A stretch of 6,794 nt of DNA. Source: a virus. Lineage: Duplodnaviria > Heunggongvirae > Uroviricota > Caudoviricetes. The notes beneath the pieces were generated by a model, which was not told the origin of the DNA, did not search any database, and worked only from the letters and a program-made list of their open reading frames with translations. Position 1 is the first letter of the stretch; each line of letters opens with the position of its first letter. Positions 1 through 6,794 of the stretch are shown in pieces. Made by a program: the position numbers and the translations under genes. The stretch is from IMG/VR virus record IMGVR_UViG_2713897190_000004. One strand, written 5' to 3'.

Positions 1-300
1 TGTTCTTCGAAGGCTGTTGGGGTACTGGCCGGGATATTTATCCTGTAGCATCTCCAGCAGAGTTGTTGGTGTCAGAGCCGGCCTCTCTTTCAACAGAGGA
101 ACAAGCATGCTGTCCCACACAGCTTCCAGAGGATCTTTGCGTGTGCGCCAGTGCCGAACACTGTTTTTTGCCCACTCTCCTTTTTCGATCCGACGACCAG
201 AACGGACTGAGATACCAGCCTTCATGGCCGAGATATGCTGAGTTATACCTTTCTTACGCTGAGTCATATAGTAACTGACCTGAGAAGTATTGAGCGTCAC
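1..300 (-). CDS. Transposase-like protein, N-terminal HTH part only; gene continues beyond the left window edge. Architecture resembles IS21-family IstA, but the IS family cannot be assigned.
   Basis: Minus-strand frame is open from position 1 up to a stop at 337..339. Candidate starts are ATG (rc of 265..267) or an upstream in-frame GTG (rc of 298..300) preceded by AGGA (rc of 307..310) at 6-nt spacing. Translation from the ATG is MTQRKKGITQHISAMKAGISVRSGRRIEKGEWAKNSVRHW..., a basic helix-turn-helix-like N-terminus typical of IS transposases. The supplied ORF track omits it because it runs off the window. Confidence 0.4.
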   Translation of the reverse strand, partial: MTLNTSQVSYYMTQRKKGITQHISAMKAGISVRSGRRIEKGEWAKNSVRHWRTRKDPLEAVWDSMLVPLLKERPALTPTTLLEMLQDKYPGQYPNSLRRT

Positions 301-385
301 GCCATTTCCTGTTGGATCATGTAAATGACACTCAGGTTACAAAACCGGCCAGAATAATCGGCGCCAGGCGGACTGAGTTATTGTC

Positions 386-596
386 GTCTCATACTCCGGT
401 TAACGATGAAACCATGCAGGAGATTAACACTCTGCTGATCGCCCTGGATAAAACATGGGATGACGACTTATTGCCGCTCTGTTCCCAGATATTTCGCCGC
501 GACATTCGCGCATCGTCAGAACTGACACAGGCCGAAGCAGTGAAAGCTCTTGGATTCCTGAAACAGAAAGCCACTGAGCAGAAGGTGGCAGCATGA
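386..596 (+). pseudogene. bet: 3' fragment of bet (Red-beta single-strand annealing protein); the N-terminal roughly 190 codons are missing.
   Basis: The translation ...[67 protein letters not shown] matches the C-terminus of lambda Bet as I recall it. Its stop overlaps the exo start (ATGA at 593..596), as in lambda. The same frame has a stop at 291..293, and residues encoded by 294..385 do not resemble Bet, so the gene is truncated or replaced at about 380..390. Confidence 0.75.
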
Positions 597-1273
597 CACC
601 GGACATTATCCTGCAGCGTACCGGGATCGACGTGAGAGCTGTCGAACAGGGGGATGATGCATGGCACAAATTACGGCTCGGCGTCATCACCGCTTCAGAA
701 GTTCACAACGTGATAGCAAAACCCCGCTCCGGAAAGAAATGGCCTGACATGAAAATGTCCTACTTCCACACCCTGCTTGCTGAGGTTTGCACCGGTGTGG
801 CTCCGGAAGTTAACGCTAAGGCGCTGGCTTGGGGAAAACAGTACGAGAACGACGCCAGAGCCCTGTTTGAGTTTACTTCCGGCGTGAATGTTACTGAATC
901 CCCGATCATCTATCGCGACGAAAGTATGCGCACCGCCTGCTCTCCCGATGGTTTATGCAGTGACGGCAACGGCCTTGAGCTGAAATGCCCGTTTACCTCC
1001 CGGGATTTCATGAAGTTCCGGCTCGGTGGTTTCGAGGCCATAAAATCGGCTTACATGGCCCAGGTGCAGTACAGCATGTGGGTGACGCGAAAAGATGCCT
1101 GGTACTTTGCCAACTATGACCCGCGTATGAAGCGTGAAGGACTGCATTATGTCGTGGTTGAGCGGGATGAAAAGTACATGGCGAGTTTTGACGAGATGGT
1201 GCCGGAGTTCATCGAAAAAATGGACGAGGCACTGGCTGAAATTAGTTTTGTATTTGGGGAGCAATGGCGATGA
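593..1273 (+). CDS. exo: Lambda exonuclease (Red-alpha, 5'-3' dsDNA exonuclease), full length, 226 aa.
   Basis: 226-aa [57 protein letters not shown]..., which is near-identical to lambda Exo as I recall it. SD-like AAGGTGG lies upstream, and the start overlaps the stop of the bet fragment. Confidence 0.95.
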
Positions 1274-1452
1274 CGCATCCTCACGATAATATCCGGGTAG
1301 GCGCGATCACTTTCGTCTACTCCGTTACAAAGCGAGGCTGGGTATTTCCCGGCCTTTCTGTTATCAGAAATCCACTGAAAGCACAGCGGCTGGCTGAGAA
1401 GATAAATAATAAACGGGAGGCGGTATGCACAAAGCATCTCCTGTTGAGTTAA
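1264..1452 (+). CDS. Small hypothetical protein of the lambda pL operon, orf60a-like.
   Basis: 62-aa ORF immediately after exo, with its ATG overlapping the exo stop region. Position and size match lambda orf60a. Function unknown. Confidence 0.7.
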
Positions 1453-1616
1453 GAACGAGTATTGAGATGGCACATAGCCTTGCTCAAATTGGAGTCAGGT
1501 TTGTGCCAATACCAGTAGAAACAGACGAAGAATTTCATACGTTAGCCACATCCCTTTCACAAAAGCTGGAAATGATGGTGGCGAAAGCAGAAGCAGATGA
1601 GAGAGACCAGGTATGA
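1425..1616 (+). CDS. Small hypothetical protein of the lambda pL operon, orf63-like.
   Basis: 63-aa ORF overlapping the previous gene by 28 nt, as the lambda orf60a/orf63 pair does. GGGAGG lies upstream of the ATG. Confidence 0.7.
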   Translation: MHKASPVELRTSIEMAHSLAQIGVRFVPIPVETDEEFHTLATSLSQKLEMMVAKAEADERDQV

Positions 1617-1626
1617 CAACCACTGA

Positions 1627-1908
1627 ATGCATTTTTCTGGCAGCGGGCTTCATATTCTGTGTGCTTATGCTTGCCGACATGGGGCTTGTTCAGTGACACC
1701 TCAGCAAGAAAACGCCCTTCGCAGCATTGCCCGTCAGGCTAATTCTGAAATCAAAAAAGCCAGACAGCAGTTTCCGGATAAAAACGTCGATGACATTTGC
1801 CGTAGCGTACTAAAGAAGCACCGCGAAACGGTAACGCTGATGGGATTCACACCGACTCATTTAAGCCTGGCGATCGGCATGTTAAACGGCGTCTTTAAGG
1901 AACGGTGA
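1627..1908 (+). CDS. Hypothetical protein in the orf61 position; start uncertain (ATG 1627 or GTG 1693).
   Basis: ORF open 1627..1908. An in-frame GTG at 1693 would give a 71-aa product, VTPQQENALRSIARQANSEIKKARQQFPDKNVDD.... Ends 3 nt before a possible small ORF at 1911. Confidence 0.55.
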   Translation: MHFSGSGLHILCAYACRHGACSVTPQQENALRSIARQANSEIKKARQQFPDKNVDDICRSVLKKHRETVTLMGFTPTHLSLAIGMLNGVFKER

Positions 1909-2006
1909 ACATGAAAAGCAAAATCATCAGGGAGCTACAGGCTCCTTTTTTATTATTCGCATTCACCCTCAAGCGTATTAACCAACAATTCAGGGATTAA
2001 TGAAAG

Positions 2007-2228
2007 ATGGCGGACATCATTGATTCAGCATCAGAAATTGAAGAATTACAGCGCAATACAGCAATAAAAATGCGTCGTCTGAACTACCAGACTATATCCG
2101 CCACTCATTGTTGTGAGTGTGGCGATCCCATAGATGAACGAAGACGCCTGGTCGTTCAGGGTTGTCGGACTTGTGCAAGTTGCCAGGAGGATCTGGAGCT
2201 TATCAGTAAACAGAGAGGTTCGAAGTGA
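2007..2228 (+). CDS. TraR/DksA-family C4 zinc-finger protein (lambda orf73-like); likely binds the RNA polymerase secondary channel.
   Basis: 73-aa ORF with the motif CCECGDPIDERRRLVVQGCRTCASC (CxxC-17-CxxC), the pattern seen in F-plasmid TraR and the DksA C-terminus. An SD-like AGGGA lies upstream. Confidence 0.85.
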   Translation: MADIIDSASEIEELQRNTAIKMRRLNYQTISATHCCECGDPIDERRRLVVQGCRTCASCQEDLELISKQRGSK

Positions 2229-2989
2229 GCGAAATTAACTATCAGGCACTGCGTGAAGCGGCAGAAAAAGCAACGTGTGGTGAGTGGTCGCTCGAATATG
2301 GAGAGAGCCGATTTGATGGTGATTATGCGCTAATTCATCGTGAAGTTGCTGGATATATTCCCATTTGCAGAATTGAAGGAGCGCATCCAGAAAGCGGTTT
2401 CGATGAAGATTTCCAAATGGAACAGCAGGCCAATGCTGAATTCATCGCCGCAGCCAATCCGGCTACTGTGCTGGCACTGCTGGATGAACGGGAAAGAAAC
2501 CAGCAATACATAAAACGCCGCGACCAGGAGAACGAGGATATTGCTCTTACTGTTGGGAAGCTGAGAGTTGAGCTTGAGGAGACAAAATCAAAACTCAACG
2601 AGCAGCGTGAGTATTACGAAGGTGTTATCTCGGATGGGGGTAAGCGTATTGCTGAACTGGAGAAAAGCGAAGAGCAACTCATTAACGAGCGTGACCATGC
2701 TGAATCTGCTTTAGCAGATATGTACTTTGCAGCAACCGGGGATGAGCCGGAGTGGAGCAACTGGTTCGGCTTTTCAGATGCTGTCGATGCCGTGGTTGAC
2801 AGAATTGCTGATTTAGAAGCTAAACAGCCATCACCAGTAGTACCGGAAGGACTGGTTAAAGCAGTGCGCTTCTATGAACAGGTTAAGCGTGAAAATCCAC
2901 CAGTCGAAACAGAGGCATGGAAAGACGCTATTGACTGGGTGCTCAAAGAGTCTTGTCAGGCTGTAAACATTGATACCAATGGAGATTGA
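2225..2989 (+). CDS. ea22: Ea22-like protein, 254 aa, with a coiled-coil-prone central region.
   Basis: GTG start overlaps the stop of the TraR-like gene (GTGA at 2225..2228), with GAGGT 6 nt upstream. The N-terminus MSEINYQALREAAE... and the central block LLDERERNQQYIKRRDQENEDIALTVGKLRVELEE..KSKLNEQREYYEGVISDG match lambda Ea22 as I recall it; the rest diverges. Confidence 0.75.
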   Translation: MSEINYQALREAAEKATCGEWSLEYGESRFDGDYALIHREVAGYIPICRIEGAHPESGFDEDFQMEQQANAEFIAAANPATVLALLDERERNQQYIKRRDQENEDIALTVGKLRVELEETKSKLNEQREYYEGVISDGGKRIAELEKSEEQLINERDHAESALADMYFAATGDEPEWSNWFGFSDAVDAVVDRIADLEAKQPSPVVPEGLVKAVRFYEQVKRENPPVETEAWKDAIDWVLKESCQAVNIDTNGD

Positions 2990-2990
2990 T

Positions 2991-3245
2991 ATGAGCACTT
3001 TTACCGACAAAGAACTGATTAAAGAAATCAAAGAGCGTATCAGCAGTTTGGATGTGCGAGACAATGTTGAGCGCCGGGCTTATGAAATTGCTCTGGCATC
3101 GCTGGAAGAGAATCCGGTGGCATGGCTGCATTCAGACAATGGCTTAGGTATTCCGGCAATAACGAGGAGTAAAAACATTGCTGACAGTTGGTTATCAAAG
3201 GGTTGGTATGTTCAGCCGCTATATATGCCAAGCCAGTGCCAGTAG
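2991..3245 (+). CDS. Hypothetical protein, 84 aa as read; probably the N-terminal piece of a frameshifted paralog of the 4004..4744 gene.
   Basis: ATG at 2991 with GGAG 6 nt upstream, 1 nt after the ea22-like stop. Its N-terminus MSTFTDKELIKEIKERISSL...RRAYEIALASLEENP parallels the N-terminus of the 4004 product (MTTITKERIELFIKNPL...MELARIALASLEREQ). Confidence 0.55.
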   Translation: MSTFTDKELIKEIKERISSLDVRDNVERRAYEIALASLEENPVAWLHSDNGLGIPAITRSKNIADSWLSKGWYVQPLYMPSQCQ

Positions 3246-3262
3246 TACCTGAAGAAAAACCA

Positions 3263-3796
3263 ATGCCTAACCCTCTTAGCATGTACGCGGTCGATGCTGT
3301 TGCCGCTATTGCAGAGGTGAGAGGCTGGAACGCCTGCCGCGCGGCTATGCTTCATGCCGGAAACTTTCGGGAAAACGCGAATTCGTCAACCAATAATTTT
3401 CGGGAAATTTCGGAAACGTCAACCAACTCTCCGGTAATTCCTGGTGAGGTGTTGTCCGCAATCCTGAAATTTGCCAGAGTTCGTGCTGATTTCGATGATT
3501 TTGACGGCGACAGGCGAGGTATCGGTGATTGTCTGGATGAGGCTGAGCAAGAGCTTATCGTTACCATTAACAAATATGCCAGTCAGTTGGCAGCAGAACC
3601 GATAGCGACTAATGACGTTCGAGAGCAGCAGACAGCCGTTCCGCCAGTTCCTGTAATACAGGCTGATGTCGCGCAAGCAATTGAAAATCTCAGGCAGAAG
3701 TTAGTGGAATGCAATCGCTATAACTACTGCGCAGATGCAGTTAAGGGCGTAGAGGATGCCTGCCACGCTGCCATGCTTCAGGGAAAAAGAGAGTGA
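3263..3796 (+). CDS. Hypothetical protein; probably the C-terminal piece of the same frameshifted gene. Start uncertain (frame open from 3185; ATG at 3263 or 3281).
   Basis: ORF in the frame of 3188..3796. No convincing SD precedes any candidate start, unlike every other gene in the operon. Contains NSPVIP, encoded by an 18-bp stretch identical to one in the 4004..4744 gene. Stop at 3794..3796 lies 1 nt before the next start. Confidence 0.5.
   Translation: MPNPLSMYAVDAVAAIAEVRGWNACRAAMLHAGNFRENANSSTNNFREISETSTNSPVIPGEVLSAILKFARVRADFDDFDGDRRGIGDCLDEAEQELIVTINKYASQLAAEPIATNDVREQQTAVPPVPVIQADVAQAIENLRQKLVECNRYNYCADAVKGVEDACHAAMLQGKRE
3362..3427 (+). repeat. Imperfect 33-bp (11-codon) tandem duplication inside the 3263..3796 coding region.
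   Basis: Two adjacent units, aactttcgggaaaacgcgaattcgtcaaccaat and aattttcgggaaatttcggaaacgtcaaccaac, encoding NFRENANSSTN and NFREISETSTN in frame. Confidence 0.6.
3424..3441 (+). repeat. 18-bp exact direct repeat (copy 1), caactctccggtaattcc, encoding NSPVIP.
   Basis: Identical 18-mer found again at 4411..4428 inside the paralogous gene. Confidence 0.8.
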
Positions 3797-3797
3797 T

Positions 3798-4007
3798 ATG
3801 GCTATTGCCGCAAGTTACACCATGCATCTCTATTGTGATTGTCGCCAGTGTACGGAAGGTGTATATCCAGTGCCAGACTTCGGTGAGTATATCGGTACGT
3901 CATGGTCTGGTTGTGCAAAAGAGGCCCGTAAAGACGGGTGGCGAATAAGCAAAGACAAAACACGTACTTTTGCGCCCGGGCATAAAGTTTTGAGGATTAA
4001 CACATGA
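3798..4007 (+). CDS. Small cysteine-rich protein, 69 aa, possible Zn-binding; function unknown.
   Basis: ATG at 3798 with AGAGAG upstream. Translation MAIAASYTMHLYCDCRQCTEGVYPVPDFGEYIGTSWSGCAKEARKDGWRISKDKTRTFAPGHKVLRINT has a C-x-C-x2-C cluster plus a distal Cys and His. Its stop overlaps the next start (ATGA at 4004..4007). Confidence 0.6.
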   Translation: MAIAASYTMHLYCDCRQCTEGVYPVPDFGEYIGTSWSGCAKEARKDGWRISKDKTRTFAPGHKVLRINT

Positions 4008-4744
4008 CCACTATTACCAAAGAACGTATTGAATTGTTCATTAAAAATCCGCTTGAAAACGGGCTTACTCGTGGCGAACAAATGGAACTAGCACGAATTG
4101 CACTGGCATCACTGGAACGCGAACAGATTCGCCACGAGCATGCCAAATGGTCTGACTCCACATTTGGCTGCGTTGGCCCCATTGGTCCACTGAAACACCT
4201 CTCAAAAGAGGCACTGGAAGCCGCAGCCGAACCAGACGATCTTAGCGAGTGGGCTGATATGCAGTTTCTGTTGTGGGATGCACAGCGCCGTGCTGGCATC
4301 AGCGATGCTGAAATTACCGTTGCTATGGAAGATAAATTGAAGATCAACATGGAGCGCCAGTGGCCTGAGCCAAAAGATGGTGAGCCTCGCTTGCACATTA
4401 AAGAACCCGGCAACTCTCCGGTAATTCCGGATGGTTTATCCACGGTATGCGCTGAGGCTTATCAGGTTGTAGGAGTTATGGCAGATGCGCTTGGTGTATT
4501 CGGTGATGCAGCAGTACAGAAAGTTCTGGATAACCTGTCACAGCAAAAACTTGTTCACAGAGATGTGCTGCCGTTCTCGCTTCCGGTAACTCCGGATGGT
4601 TGGGTTATGGTTCCTAAACAGGTAACGCCGGAAATCAGCAACGCGATAAACGTTGTGGGTCAACGCTGTACATGCGGAAATTGCTCTCAGCGGTTGTGGG
4701 ATTTATTACTCGACGCCACACAGCAAGGAGTTAACCGTGGCTAA
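4004..4744 (+). CDS. Hypothetical protein, 246 aa; intact paralog of the 2991..3796 locus.
   Basis: ATG at 4004 with GAGGA 7 nt upstream. Shares the IALASLE N-terminal motif and the NSPVIP motif with the upstream locus. C-terminus contains CTCGNC. Confidence 0.75.
   Translation: MTTITKERIELFIKNPLENGLTRGEQMELARIALASLEREQIRHEHAKWSDSTFGCVGPIGPLKHLSKEALEAAAEPDDLSEWADMQFLLWDAQRRAGISDAEITVAMEDKLKINMERQWPEPKDGEPRLHIKEPGNSPVIPDGLSTVCAEAYQVVGVMADALGVFGDAAVQKVLDNLSQQKLVHRDVLPFSLPVTPDGWVMVPKQVTPEISNAINVVGQRCTCGNCSQRLWDLLLDATQQGVNRG
4411..4428 (+). repeat. 18-bp exact direct repeat (copy 2), caactctccggtaattcc, encoding NSPVIP.
   Basis: Identical to 3424..3441. Flanking bases differ on both sides. Confidence 0.8.
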
Positions 4745-5021
4745 CCTGCAACTTGCCGTTAAAGGTGAATACTTCGATGCCATGATTCGCGGAGAGAAAA
4801 CGGAAGAGTATCGCCTGTGTAATGACTACTGGAAAAAGCGCCTCGTTAACCGTAAGCATGACCGCCTGATTATCACAAAGGGATATCCGAAGCGCGACGA
4901 TTCCAGCCGCAGAGTTGATGTTCCGTATGACGGATATGAAGTGAAGACAATCACACATCCGCACTTCGGTGATAAACCGGTAAAGGTATACGCGATAAAG
5001 GTAAATATCGGCACTGAATAA
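4737..5021 (+). CDS. ASCH/PUA-like domain protein (putative), 94 aa from the GTG start.
   Basis: GTG at 4737 preceded by AAGGAG (4725..4730) at 6-nt spacing, overlapping the stop of the previous gene. The N-terminal LAVKGEYFDAMIRGEKTEEYR resembles the G-x-K-T-x-E-x-R signature of ASCH-domain proteins (for example E. coli YqfB), from memory. Confidence 0.6.
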   Translation: MANLQLAVKGEYFDAMIRGEKTEEYRLCNDYWKKRLVNRKHDRLIITKGYPKRDDSSRRVDVPYDGYEVKTITHPHFGDKPVKVYAIKVNIGTE

Positions 5022-5046
5022 CAATCCGCACAACACAAGGTCAAGA

Positions 5047-5286
5047 ATGTTCAGAGTGATTTACCCTAACACCTGGTACGTCGACCACCACGGCACTCCC
5101 TGCAAAATCCTGCGTTCCACTCACAACAAAGTTCACTACATCCGAAAAGGCAGAACATGTATCGCCAGCATGTTCCGCTTTAATCATGACTTTGAACCTG
5201 TGAATAAAGCTGACGCAGATCGGATAGCTGAAGAGATCGAAACAGCAGAACACATTAAGAAGTTACGTGCCATACGCAGGAAATAG
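5047..5286 (+). CDS. Hypothetical protein, 79 aa, basic C-terminus.
   Basis: ATG at 5047 with AAGG 6 nt upstream. Last gene before the AT-rich spacer that precedes xis. No recognisable motif. Confidence 0.55.
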   Translation: MFRVIYPNTWYVDHHGTPCKILRSTHNKVHYIRKGRTCIASMFRFNHDFEPVNKADADRIAEEIETAEHIKKLRAIRRK

Positions 5287-5425
5287 AAAAATTGATAAAT
5301 TCAATACTGCATTTCTCAGCATTAAATTTATCTCTATGACCAGTCAAGAGATGTACCTGCCATGAGCTTAATATCATGTCAGATATATCGGTCACAAACT
5401 CCCTCAGCAGCTAAGAGGAGGACAA

Positions 5426-5662
5426 ATGTCTCGACTAATCACTTTACAGGACTGGGCTAAAGAAGAATTTGGGGACTTAGCACCAAGTGAGCGAGTTCTG
5501 AAAAAATACGCGCAAGGGAAAATGATGGCCCCACCCGCTATAAAAGTTGGTCGCTACTGGATGATTGACCGAAATTCCCGTTTTGTAGGAACGCTTGCAG
5601 AACCGCAACTCCCAATAAACGCAAACCCAAAACTCCAACGGATAATCGCTGATGGCTGCTAG
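5426..5662 (+). CDS. xis: Excisionase (lambda Xis-family winged-helix recombination directionality factor).
   Basis: 78-aa ORF with a strong SD (TAAGAGGAGG) upstream. Sequence ITLQDWAKEE...APPAIKVGRYWMI parallels lambda Xis (LTLQEWNARQ...FPPPVKDGREYLF). The 3' end overlaps the int start by 11 nt. Confidence 0.85.
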   Translation: MSRLITLQDWAKEEFGDLAPSERVLKKYAQGKMMAPPAIKVGRYWMIDRNSRFVGTLAEPQLPINANPKLQRIIADGC

Positions 5663-6794
5663 ACCCCGATCTCACAAAATCTCTATACCCAATTTATATT
5701 GCAAATTAGATAAGCGAACCGGAAAGGTATATTGGCAATACAAACATCCACTATCCGGTCGTTTTCATAGCTTAGGAACTGATGAGAATGAAGCAAAACA
5801 AGTTGCTACTGAAGCAAATACCATTATTGCTGAACAACGTACCCGACAAATATTAAGCGTCAATGAGCGTCTAGAAAGAATGAAAGGCAGGCGCTCAGAC
5901 ATTACGGTGACAGAATGGCTTGATAAATATATTTCTATCCAGGAGGACAGGCTGCAACATAATGAACTAAGACCCAACTCCTATCGGCAAAAAGGCAAAC
6001 CCATTCGTCTTTTCCGTGAGCATTGTGGAATGCAACACCTCAAGGATATTACCGCACTTGATATTGCCGAAATAATTGATGCTGTAAAGGCTGAAGGTCA
6101 TAACAGGATGGCGCAAGTCGTGAGAATGGTGTTGATCGACGTCTTCAAAGAAGCACAACACGCAGGACATGTTCCGCCAGGATTTAACCCAGCGCAGGCA
6201 ACAAAACAACCGCGAAATCGAGTAAACCGCCAAAGATTATCACTGCCCGAATGGCAGGCAATATTTGACAGCGTAAGCAGACGGCAGCCCTATTTAAAAT
6301 GCGGGATGCTACTTGCTCTTGTCACTGGACAACGTTTAGGCGATATCTGCAATTTGAAATTCTCTGATATCTGGGACGACATGTTGCACATTACTCAGGA
6401 AAAAACCGGTTCAAAACTTGCTATTCCGCTTAACCTGAAATGCGATGCTCTGAATATTACCCTTCGTGAAGTTATATCTCAGTGCAGGGATGCTGTTGTT
6501 AGTAAATATCTGGTCCATTACCGTCACACTACCTCTCAAGCAAACAGAGGAGACCAGGTGTCTGCAAATACTCTTACAACGGCTTTTAAAAAGGCCAGGG
6601 AAAAATGTGGCATAAAATGGGAGCCAGGAACTGCGCCCACATTTCATGAGCAGCGATCTCTGTCAGAACGGTTATATCGGGAACAGGGTCTGGATACGCA
6701 AAAGTTGTTAGGTCATAAATCCAGAAAAATGACCGACCGATACAATGATGATCGTGGTAAAGACTGGATTATCGTAGATATCAAAACAGCATAG
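5652..6794 (+). CDS. int: Tyrosine integrase, lambda Int family, full length 380 aa; divergent from lambda Int.
   Basis: Clear similarity to lambda and HK022 Int over the catalytic domain: LVTGQRLGDICNLKFSDI, KTGSKLAIPL, PTFHEQRSLSERLY, LLGHKSRKMTDRYNDDRGKDW. The catalytic R, K, H-x-x-R, H and Y positions are all present. The stop codon is the last 3 nt of the window. Confidence 0.95.
   Translation: MAARPRSHKISIPNLYCKLDKRTGKVYWQYKHPLSGRFHSLGTDENEAKQVATEANTIIAEQRTRQILSVNERLERMKGRRSDITVTEWLDKYISIQEDRLQHNELRPNSYRQKGKPIRLFREHCGMQHLKDITALDIAEIIDAVKAEGHNRMAQVVRMVLIDVFKEAQHAGHVPPGFNPAQATKQPRNRVNRQRLSLPEWQAIFDSVSRRQPYLKCGMLLALVTGQRLGDICNLKFSDIWDDMLHITQEKTGSKLAIPLNLKCDALNITLREVISQCRDAVVSKYLVHYRHTTSQANRGDQVSANTLTTAFKKAREKCGIKWEPGTAPTFHEQRSLSERLYREQGLDTQKLLGHKSRKMTDRYNDDRGKDWIIVDIKTA

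Follow-up and report, generated by a model that had tools for sequence, protein, structure and literature searches.

Probable insertion of ISEc10 at codon 195 of the Red recombination gene bet in an icd-integrated lambdoid prophage of Escherichia coli

The window, the whole 6794-nucleotide stretch of viral DNA analysed here (IMG/VR record IMGVR_UViG_2713897190_000004), starts inside an insertion sequence, continues through the 3' end of bet and an intact exo gene, and ends with the integration genes of a lambdoid prophage. The lambda exonuclease gene exo (593..1273, + strand, 226 aa) encodes a member of the YqaJ family (Pfam PF09588, E = 2.2e-30). Residues 1-226 of the product were aligned with PDB entries 6M9K_A and 1AVQ (E = 4e-154); 221 of 226 residues are identical to lambda Exo (5 substitutions), and the region containing the catalytic residues D119, E129 and K131 is unchanged. 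The exo ATG overlaps the bet stop codon (ATGA), and a Shine–Dalgarno-like AAGGTGG sits in the retained 3' end of bet.

The integration module consists of xis (5426..5662, + strand, 78 aa), encoding an excisionase (Pfam Exc, PF07825, 6.7e-06), and int (5652..6794, + strand, 380 aa), encoding a lambda-type tyrosine integrase with an arm-binding domain (Arm-DNA-bind_1, 1.8e-28; Phage_integrase, 7.8e-24). Both are full-length ORFs, and their DNA is 100% identical to that of genes which the annotation of 86 genomes gives as intact. An earlier preliminary description, made from the sequence of the window alone, had regarded exo, xis and int as intact, and their lengths and domains bear this out. The window ends at the int stop codon; in related contigs icd then follows. 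The other products are DUF1317 and DUF1382 proteins, a TraR/DksA zinc-finger protein, Ead/Ea22, a dATP/dGTP pyrophosphohydrolase-domain protein and a DUF4222 protein. Between ead and xis, in a b-region-like stretch, two ORFs (3188-3796, 202 aa, which overlaps neighbouring ORFs, and 4653-5021, 122 aa) gave no Pfam match.

Positions 1..393 (- strand) are the left, istA-proximal 393 bp of ISEc10, a 2410-bp IS21-family element that carries istA and istB and the remainder of which lies upstream of the window. The identity to the copy in NZ_CP023853 is 393/393. Positions 1..395 were used as a query, which gave 789 records with at least 80% query coverage and 100% matches to RefSeq loci annotated as 'IS21-like element ISEc10 family transposase' in the complete E. 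coli genomes listed. The minus-strand ORF at 1..300, previously noted as transposase-like, is istA: the first 100 codons of a gene of 499 aa when complete, with a GTG start at 298-300, running off the start of the window. RefSeq annotation of identical ISEc10 copies likewise starts istA at window position 300, with istB following. The 89-aa IstA fragment matched NCBIfam NF033546 (IS21 family transposase) with E = 4.6e-10, which falls short of the whole-protein cut-off since the fragment comprises only about 90 aa, and returned zero matches in a Pfam search. While the window holds only codons 1-100 of istA, two public contigs with the same junction (L032 and L033) encode the pair, a 499-aa IstA and a 251-aa IstB (PF01695).

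The left end of ISEc10 has the imperfect terminal inverted repeat typical of IS21 elements. Both ends of the element start with TAT(T/G)AGACG, and the 50-nt ends align at 34/50 positions; the left repeat region occupies 344..393 (- strand). The preliminary description had called for the element and its terminal repeat to be identified, and had expected the IS terminus near 340..390; the end was in fact located at 393. The boundary was set using four ISEc10 copies in different flanks (adjacent to glnP, in a prophage lom gene, adjacent to an Abi gene and near kpsF). With the target duplication accounted for, the flanks of these copies diverge past ...GTCTCATA, which makes window position 393 the last base of the IS. 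The four reference copies are flanked by duplications of CTCAGC, CTGCCG, CTTATGAG and CTGGC (one of 5 bp, two of 6 bp and one of 8 bp). In the window the corresponding short duplication would be the 6-bp CTCCGG at 394..399 (+ strand, bet nt 584-589), as deduced from an exact match to a predicted product described below. The duplications compared (L001, L013, L014, L015 and window 394-399) vary in length and start with CT at the istA-proximal end in all five cases, which suggests a target preference of ISEc10.

Downstream of the boundary lies the 3' remnant of bet (394..596, + strand), comprising codons 195-261 (67 codons) and the TGA. The preliminary description had recognized a C-terminal bet remnant of about 70 codons starting at about 386; the remnant is confirmed, with its start corrected to 394 and its length to 67 codons plus the stop. 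That description had also proposed alignment of the bet frame with intact bet. In an ungapped comparison, window position 394 corresponds to bet nt 584 and hence to the second position of codon 195, so the break falls at bet nt 583/584. The final A of the IS at 393 equals bet nt 583 by chance and restores codon Thr195. ACTC at 393-396 thus fits both the IS and bet, and it is the duplication analysis that puts the boundary between 393 and 394; a BLAST alignment started at 390 because of a one-base gap. A full-length bet with a divergent 5' part was considered and ruled out: identity to bet is 100% on one side of the IS terminus and vanishes on the other, with the switch at one base.

The remnant is identical to lambda Bet 195-261 at 66/67 residues and matched PDB entries 6M9K chain D and 8TFU_A (E = 1e-37 to 3e-38). 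It spans the same 67 residues as 6M9K chain D ('Recombination protein bet'), which is the C-terminal three-helix domain of Bet crystallized on lambda Exo (PMC6393309). The Exo/SSB-binding three-helix domain of Red-beta is thus retained. The N-terminal annealing and oligomerization domain (lambda Bet 1-177; PF03837) is not encoded by ORF 312-596, which gave no Pfam match, and bet nt 1-583 and gam are absent throughout the 6794-nt window. Since the annealing domain is missing from the window, the remnant is to be regarded as a gene fragment and not as a functional RecT-type member.

Six-frame ORF analysis confirmed two further points of the preliminary description: a TGA stop is present in the bet frame at 291..293, and residues upstream of the remnant are unrelated to Bet. 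In the in-frame ORF downstream of this stop (312..596) the final 67 residues are Bet-like and the initial 27 are not. The IS–bet chimeric ORFs (381..596, + strand) have possible starts at TTG 312, TTG 381 and ATG 414. Gene calls in public assemblies include the 71-aa ORF (TTG 381) and the 60-aa ORF (ATG 414); an exact look-up of the 94-aa ORF from TTG 312 returned no record. Look-up of the 71-aa ORF led to contigs carrying the window junction; the 60-aa ORF was found mostly in other truncated-bet contexts.

The prophage part of the window, positions 390..6794, matches at 100% identity a prophage of 86 complete genomes, among them ABU 83972, ATCC 25922 and clone D i2/i14, and 390..1300 is 99.9% identical to CFT073. 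The annotation of these relatives shows gam and a 786-bp bet as intact, and the bet remnant has 99.9% DNA identity to the intact bet of CFT073-type prophages. An exact look-up of Exo gave 13,293 blocks; among the contexts listed, all have an intact bet. The closest public contig with the junction, L031 (ENA ERZ27237982 k111_32051, 108.7 kb), departs from the window only at position 554 and has the gene order int, icd, rluE-like, NUDIX, mnmA-like. As icd follows the integrase in this contig, the prophage is one of the icd site.

Other insertion sequences were seen in the early-left region of this prophage in different strains. ISEc52 (IS3 family) lies in the DUF1382 gene of the ATCC 25922 and M16807 copies. 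RIVM_C040753 has an IS100-type IS21 element in the early-left region, and L019 has one in ead. IS3-family copies lie upstream of gam and in the DUF1382 gene of the same prophage in other strains. The early-left IS loci recorded in other strains are L002 4220-5389, one in NZ_CP134715, L017 646-1793, L018 3981-5194 and L019 5180-6681.

The junction between ISEc10 and bet was found on nine contigs from public ENA and Logan assemblies, and four of these loci (L031-L034; samples ERZ27237982, ERZ27273951, ERR10298846 and SRR22802419) were inspected. The exact window junction had 0 matches in GTDB representative genomes, JGI metagenomes and IMG/VR. Because the window starts inside the IS, it cannot by itself separate an insertion from a deletion. 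We therefore predicted the product of the other IS junction, namely the Bet N-terminus, the duplicated bases and the ISEc10 right end, for duplications of 3-9 bp, and looked up each product in a collection of 15 billion proteins. Of these products the collection contains just the one for 6 bp (CTCCGG), a protein of 201 aa in which Bet 1-196 is followed by VLDVN. It occurs on 37 contigs (NCBI, Logan and ENA) of up to 885 kb. The products predicted for duplications of 3, 4, 5, 7, 8 and 9 bp were absent from the same collection. Two junctions that overlap by exactly CTCCGG point to one transposition in which the target sequence was not lost. From the matching 6-bp overlap we infer that both junctions occur in one genome with one IS copy between them. 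Neither junction was found in any complete E. coli genome or PLSDB plasmid.

ISEc10 has thus probably transposed into bet of an icd-integrated lambdoid prophage in a CFT073 / ATCC 25922-like E. coli, bet being simply split. The element would have inserted after bet nt 583 (codon 195) with duplication of the 6-bp target CTCCGG and with istA pointing away from exo. The 3' part of bet (residues 195-261) would have been left beside exo, and the 5' part (Bet 1-196 with a five-residue, IS-encoded VLDVN tail) would lie beyond the far IS end, outside the window. In a simple insertion the right end of the IS is expected to be flanked by ...GACATCACTCCGG. New ISEc10-istB insertions near lpp have been selected in CFT073 in the laboratory (PMC7482066). 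The mobility of ISEc10 in the CFT073 lineage and the junctions overlapping by CTCCGG together favour a plain insertion.

The preliminary description had allowed for an IS insertion or an IS-mediated deletion that removed the 5' end of bet. The junction of an IS end with bet stands, and of the two routes the 6-bp reciprocal junction on 37 contigs favours insertion. Similarly, the window indeed holds no 5' part of bet, but the reciprocal junction overlapping by CTCCGG indicates that this part was split off and not lost. In an IS-mediated adjacent deletion or inversion, the IS end would have been joined to bet nt 584 intramolecularly, with the 5' part of bet, gam and further pL genes removed or inverted. 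Such an event would agree with the lack of gam and of the bet 5' end in the window, the region upstream of the IS lying outside it, and large deletions ending in bet are known in other E. coli prophages. It would not yield the matching reciprocal junction with a 6-bp overlap found in public data, and gam and bet are kept in all 86 near-identical complete prophages, so we consider it improbable; the overlap indicates ordinary transposition without loss of bet sequence. Still less credit is due to an assembly chimera, in which the IS and bet were joined by the assembler and the molecule never existed. The window does start within a repeat and the junction is in no finished genome, but the junction recurs on nine contigs from several ENA and Logan samples produced by different assemblers, falls exactly at the IS terminus next to a flank starting with the CT typical of ISEc10 targets, and has a reciprocal junction with a matching 6-bp duplication.

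What lies beyond the far end of the IS was considered separately. IS21-family elements are classic formers of cointegrates. L032 (Logan ERR10298846; 1-775) and L033 (SRR22802419) run from the bet remnant through the complete IS into traT of an F plasmid and not into the 5' part of bet. The far flank reads ...CCACCATC joined to TATTAG (also given as ...CCACCATC joined to TATTAGACG) and is 100% identical to plasmid traT regions. Two readings fit this link: a wrong join across the repeat during assembly, or a plasmid cointegrate formed by ISEc10 inside the prophage. In a cointegrate, two direct ISEc10 copies would flank an integrated F-type plasmid, so that the far end of the IS in the window would adjoin plasmid DNA in place of the bet 5' part, bet still being split with the 6-bp duplication. 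Replicon fusion of the IS21 type could have produced it, as could homologous recombination of a bet::ISEc10 copy with a traT::ISEc10 copy. The first base of L033 is a C, which is the traT flank base, where G would be expected from bet CTCCGG. Both contigs, on the other hand, are 3-4 kb short-read contigs through a 2.4-kb repeat, where wrong joins are frequent; the duplication starting with CT that 5/5 other ISEc10 insertions have is missing from the traT flank, no traT::ISEc10 junction was found among complete genomes, and no finished genome or PLSDB plasmid has such a structure. A cointegrate is therefore rather unlikely, and the preferred reading remains a single ISEc10 copy between the two parts of bet.

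The position of the insertion bears on the function of Red-beta. DNA binding, oligomerization and annealing reside in residues 1-177, which alone are enough for annealing; binding of Exo, and probably of SSB, falls to residues 178-261 (PMC9512822). Mutations in the interface between the C-terminal domain and Exo strongly reduce recombination in vivo (PMC6393309). A split at codon 195 parts the annealing domain from the Exo/SSB-binding domain, and Red recombination should therefore be lost. Judging from this domain biology, the Red pathway of the prophage should be non-functional despite intact exo, xis and int (PMC9512822, PMC6393309). The prophage should still be able to excise, since the insertion leaves xis and int unaffected.

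The IS also places 2.4 kb in antisense orientation between pL and exo, and two terminator-like hairpins are present on the + strand within the IS part of the window. An outward IS promoter driving the bet remnant and exo was considered and dropped: a consensus scan, which is weak evidence, revealed no sigma-70-like promoter in 1..700 and none directed towards exo. Expression of exo would then require N-modified polymerase to read through the IS.

The 60-aa Bet C-terminal ORF (from Met202) is called as a gene in 1109 blocks of the collection, and bet is truncated in 9/10 of the loci with this ORF that were read. In the truncated loci three partners lie upstream: the 5' end of a long gam frame, ninG on the opposite strand, and gam nt 187 (in a DLP12-type prophage). 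With all three, bet homology resumes at T590 (junction followed by TTAACGATG), with TT/TTA microhomology where the partner is known. The three T590 junction types were found in 21, 6 and 7 of 5426 complete genomes, and an IMG/VR search gave no junction types beyond the same three and no junction in which the left part is retained. In the DLP12-type prophage of L023 (4198-4204), bet is present up to ...GGTTAA (A593), where it meets the 3' end of int; the microhomology at this junction is TAA. The breakpoint loci read were L004-L012 (at about 9987-9991), L023 (4198-4204) and L024-L030; bet nt 590-593 correspond to window positions 400-403. Four apparently independent deletions in other E. coli lambdoid prophages thus end in the TTAA of bet nt 590-593, 6-10 nt from the ISEc10 insertion. 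With ISEc10 at nt 584 this makes five independent events within 10 bp, in the interdomain linker and overlapping a GTTAAC palindrome.

It is nevertheless doubtful that bet nt 584-593 (CTCCGG-TTAA) forms a genuine site-specific hot spot of rearrangement in E. coli lambdoid prophages. Finding such loci by way of the 60-aa ORF limits where a breakpoint can lie to some tens of bases, and leaves the single-base coincidence unaccounted for. The exo alleles at the T590 junctions differ at up to 23/880 nt, and the first ~160 nt to the right of the junction are invariant in all of them, which is compatible with a single ancestral deletion as well as with separate ones. Candidate causes of a hot spot are a lost element with a TTAA duplication and excision-linked deletions, a recurrent break at the bet TTAA site, and selection for a free-standing Bet C-terminal domain beside exo. 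If unrelated rearrangements do repeatedly strike the same bases of bet, a mechanistic cause or selection may act there. A third way of breaking bet was observed in L003 (9399-10183), where a full-length bet has lost 1 nt from a run of A (GTCGAAAATACC to GTCGAAATACC); the frameshift gives a 208-aa ORF with the RecT domain and the same 60-aa C-terminal ORF.

The disruption of prophage genes by insertion sequences is commonplace. ISEc10 in bet would be a further example of IS-driven prophage decay, in a lineage where ISEc10 moves, and predicts a prophage that is Red-defective yet excisable. The junction is also a marker of a strain lineage, since several public assemblies share it. All of the components are known entities at 98-100% identity, and only the insertion site is new.

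The locus was compared with four known systems. ISEc10 itself is unchanged: over the part present it is identical at 393/393 nt, with the same terminal sequence and a duplication within the 5-8 bp range of other copies, and in the collections searched it is novel only in its insertion site, bet codon 195 of an icd-site prophage. With the intact icd-adjacent lambdoid prophages (CFT073, ABU83972, ATCC 25922 and clone D) the window shares the order exo-DUF1317-DUF1382-...-xis-int, but CFT073-type prophages have an uninterrupted 786-bp bet whereas that of the window is broken by ISEc10. From the lambda Red module (gam-bet-exo) the window keeps Exo (221/226), Bet 195-261 (66/67) and the ATGA overlap, but has neither gam nor Bet 1-194, which the IS separates from the remnant. 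The fourth system is that of decayed lambdoid prophages with a truncated bet, attλ-site and DLP12-type remnants in APEC O78, O157:H16 and porcine ETEC. In these and in the window, the 60-aa Bet C-terminal ORF lies directly upstream of an intact 226-aa exo; the decayed prophages carry deletions with their right end at bet nt 590 and no IS, whereas the window carries an IS insertion 6 nt upstream.
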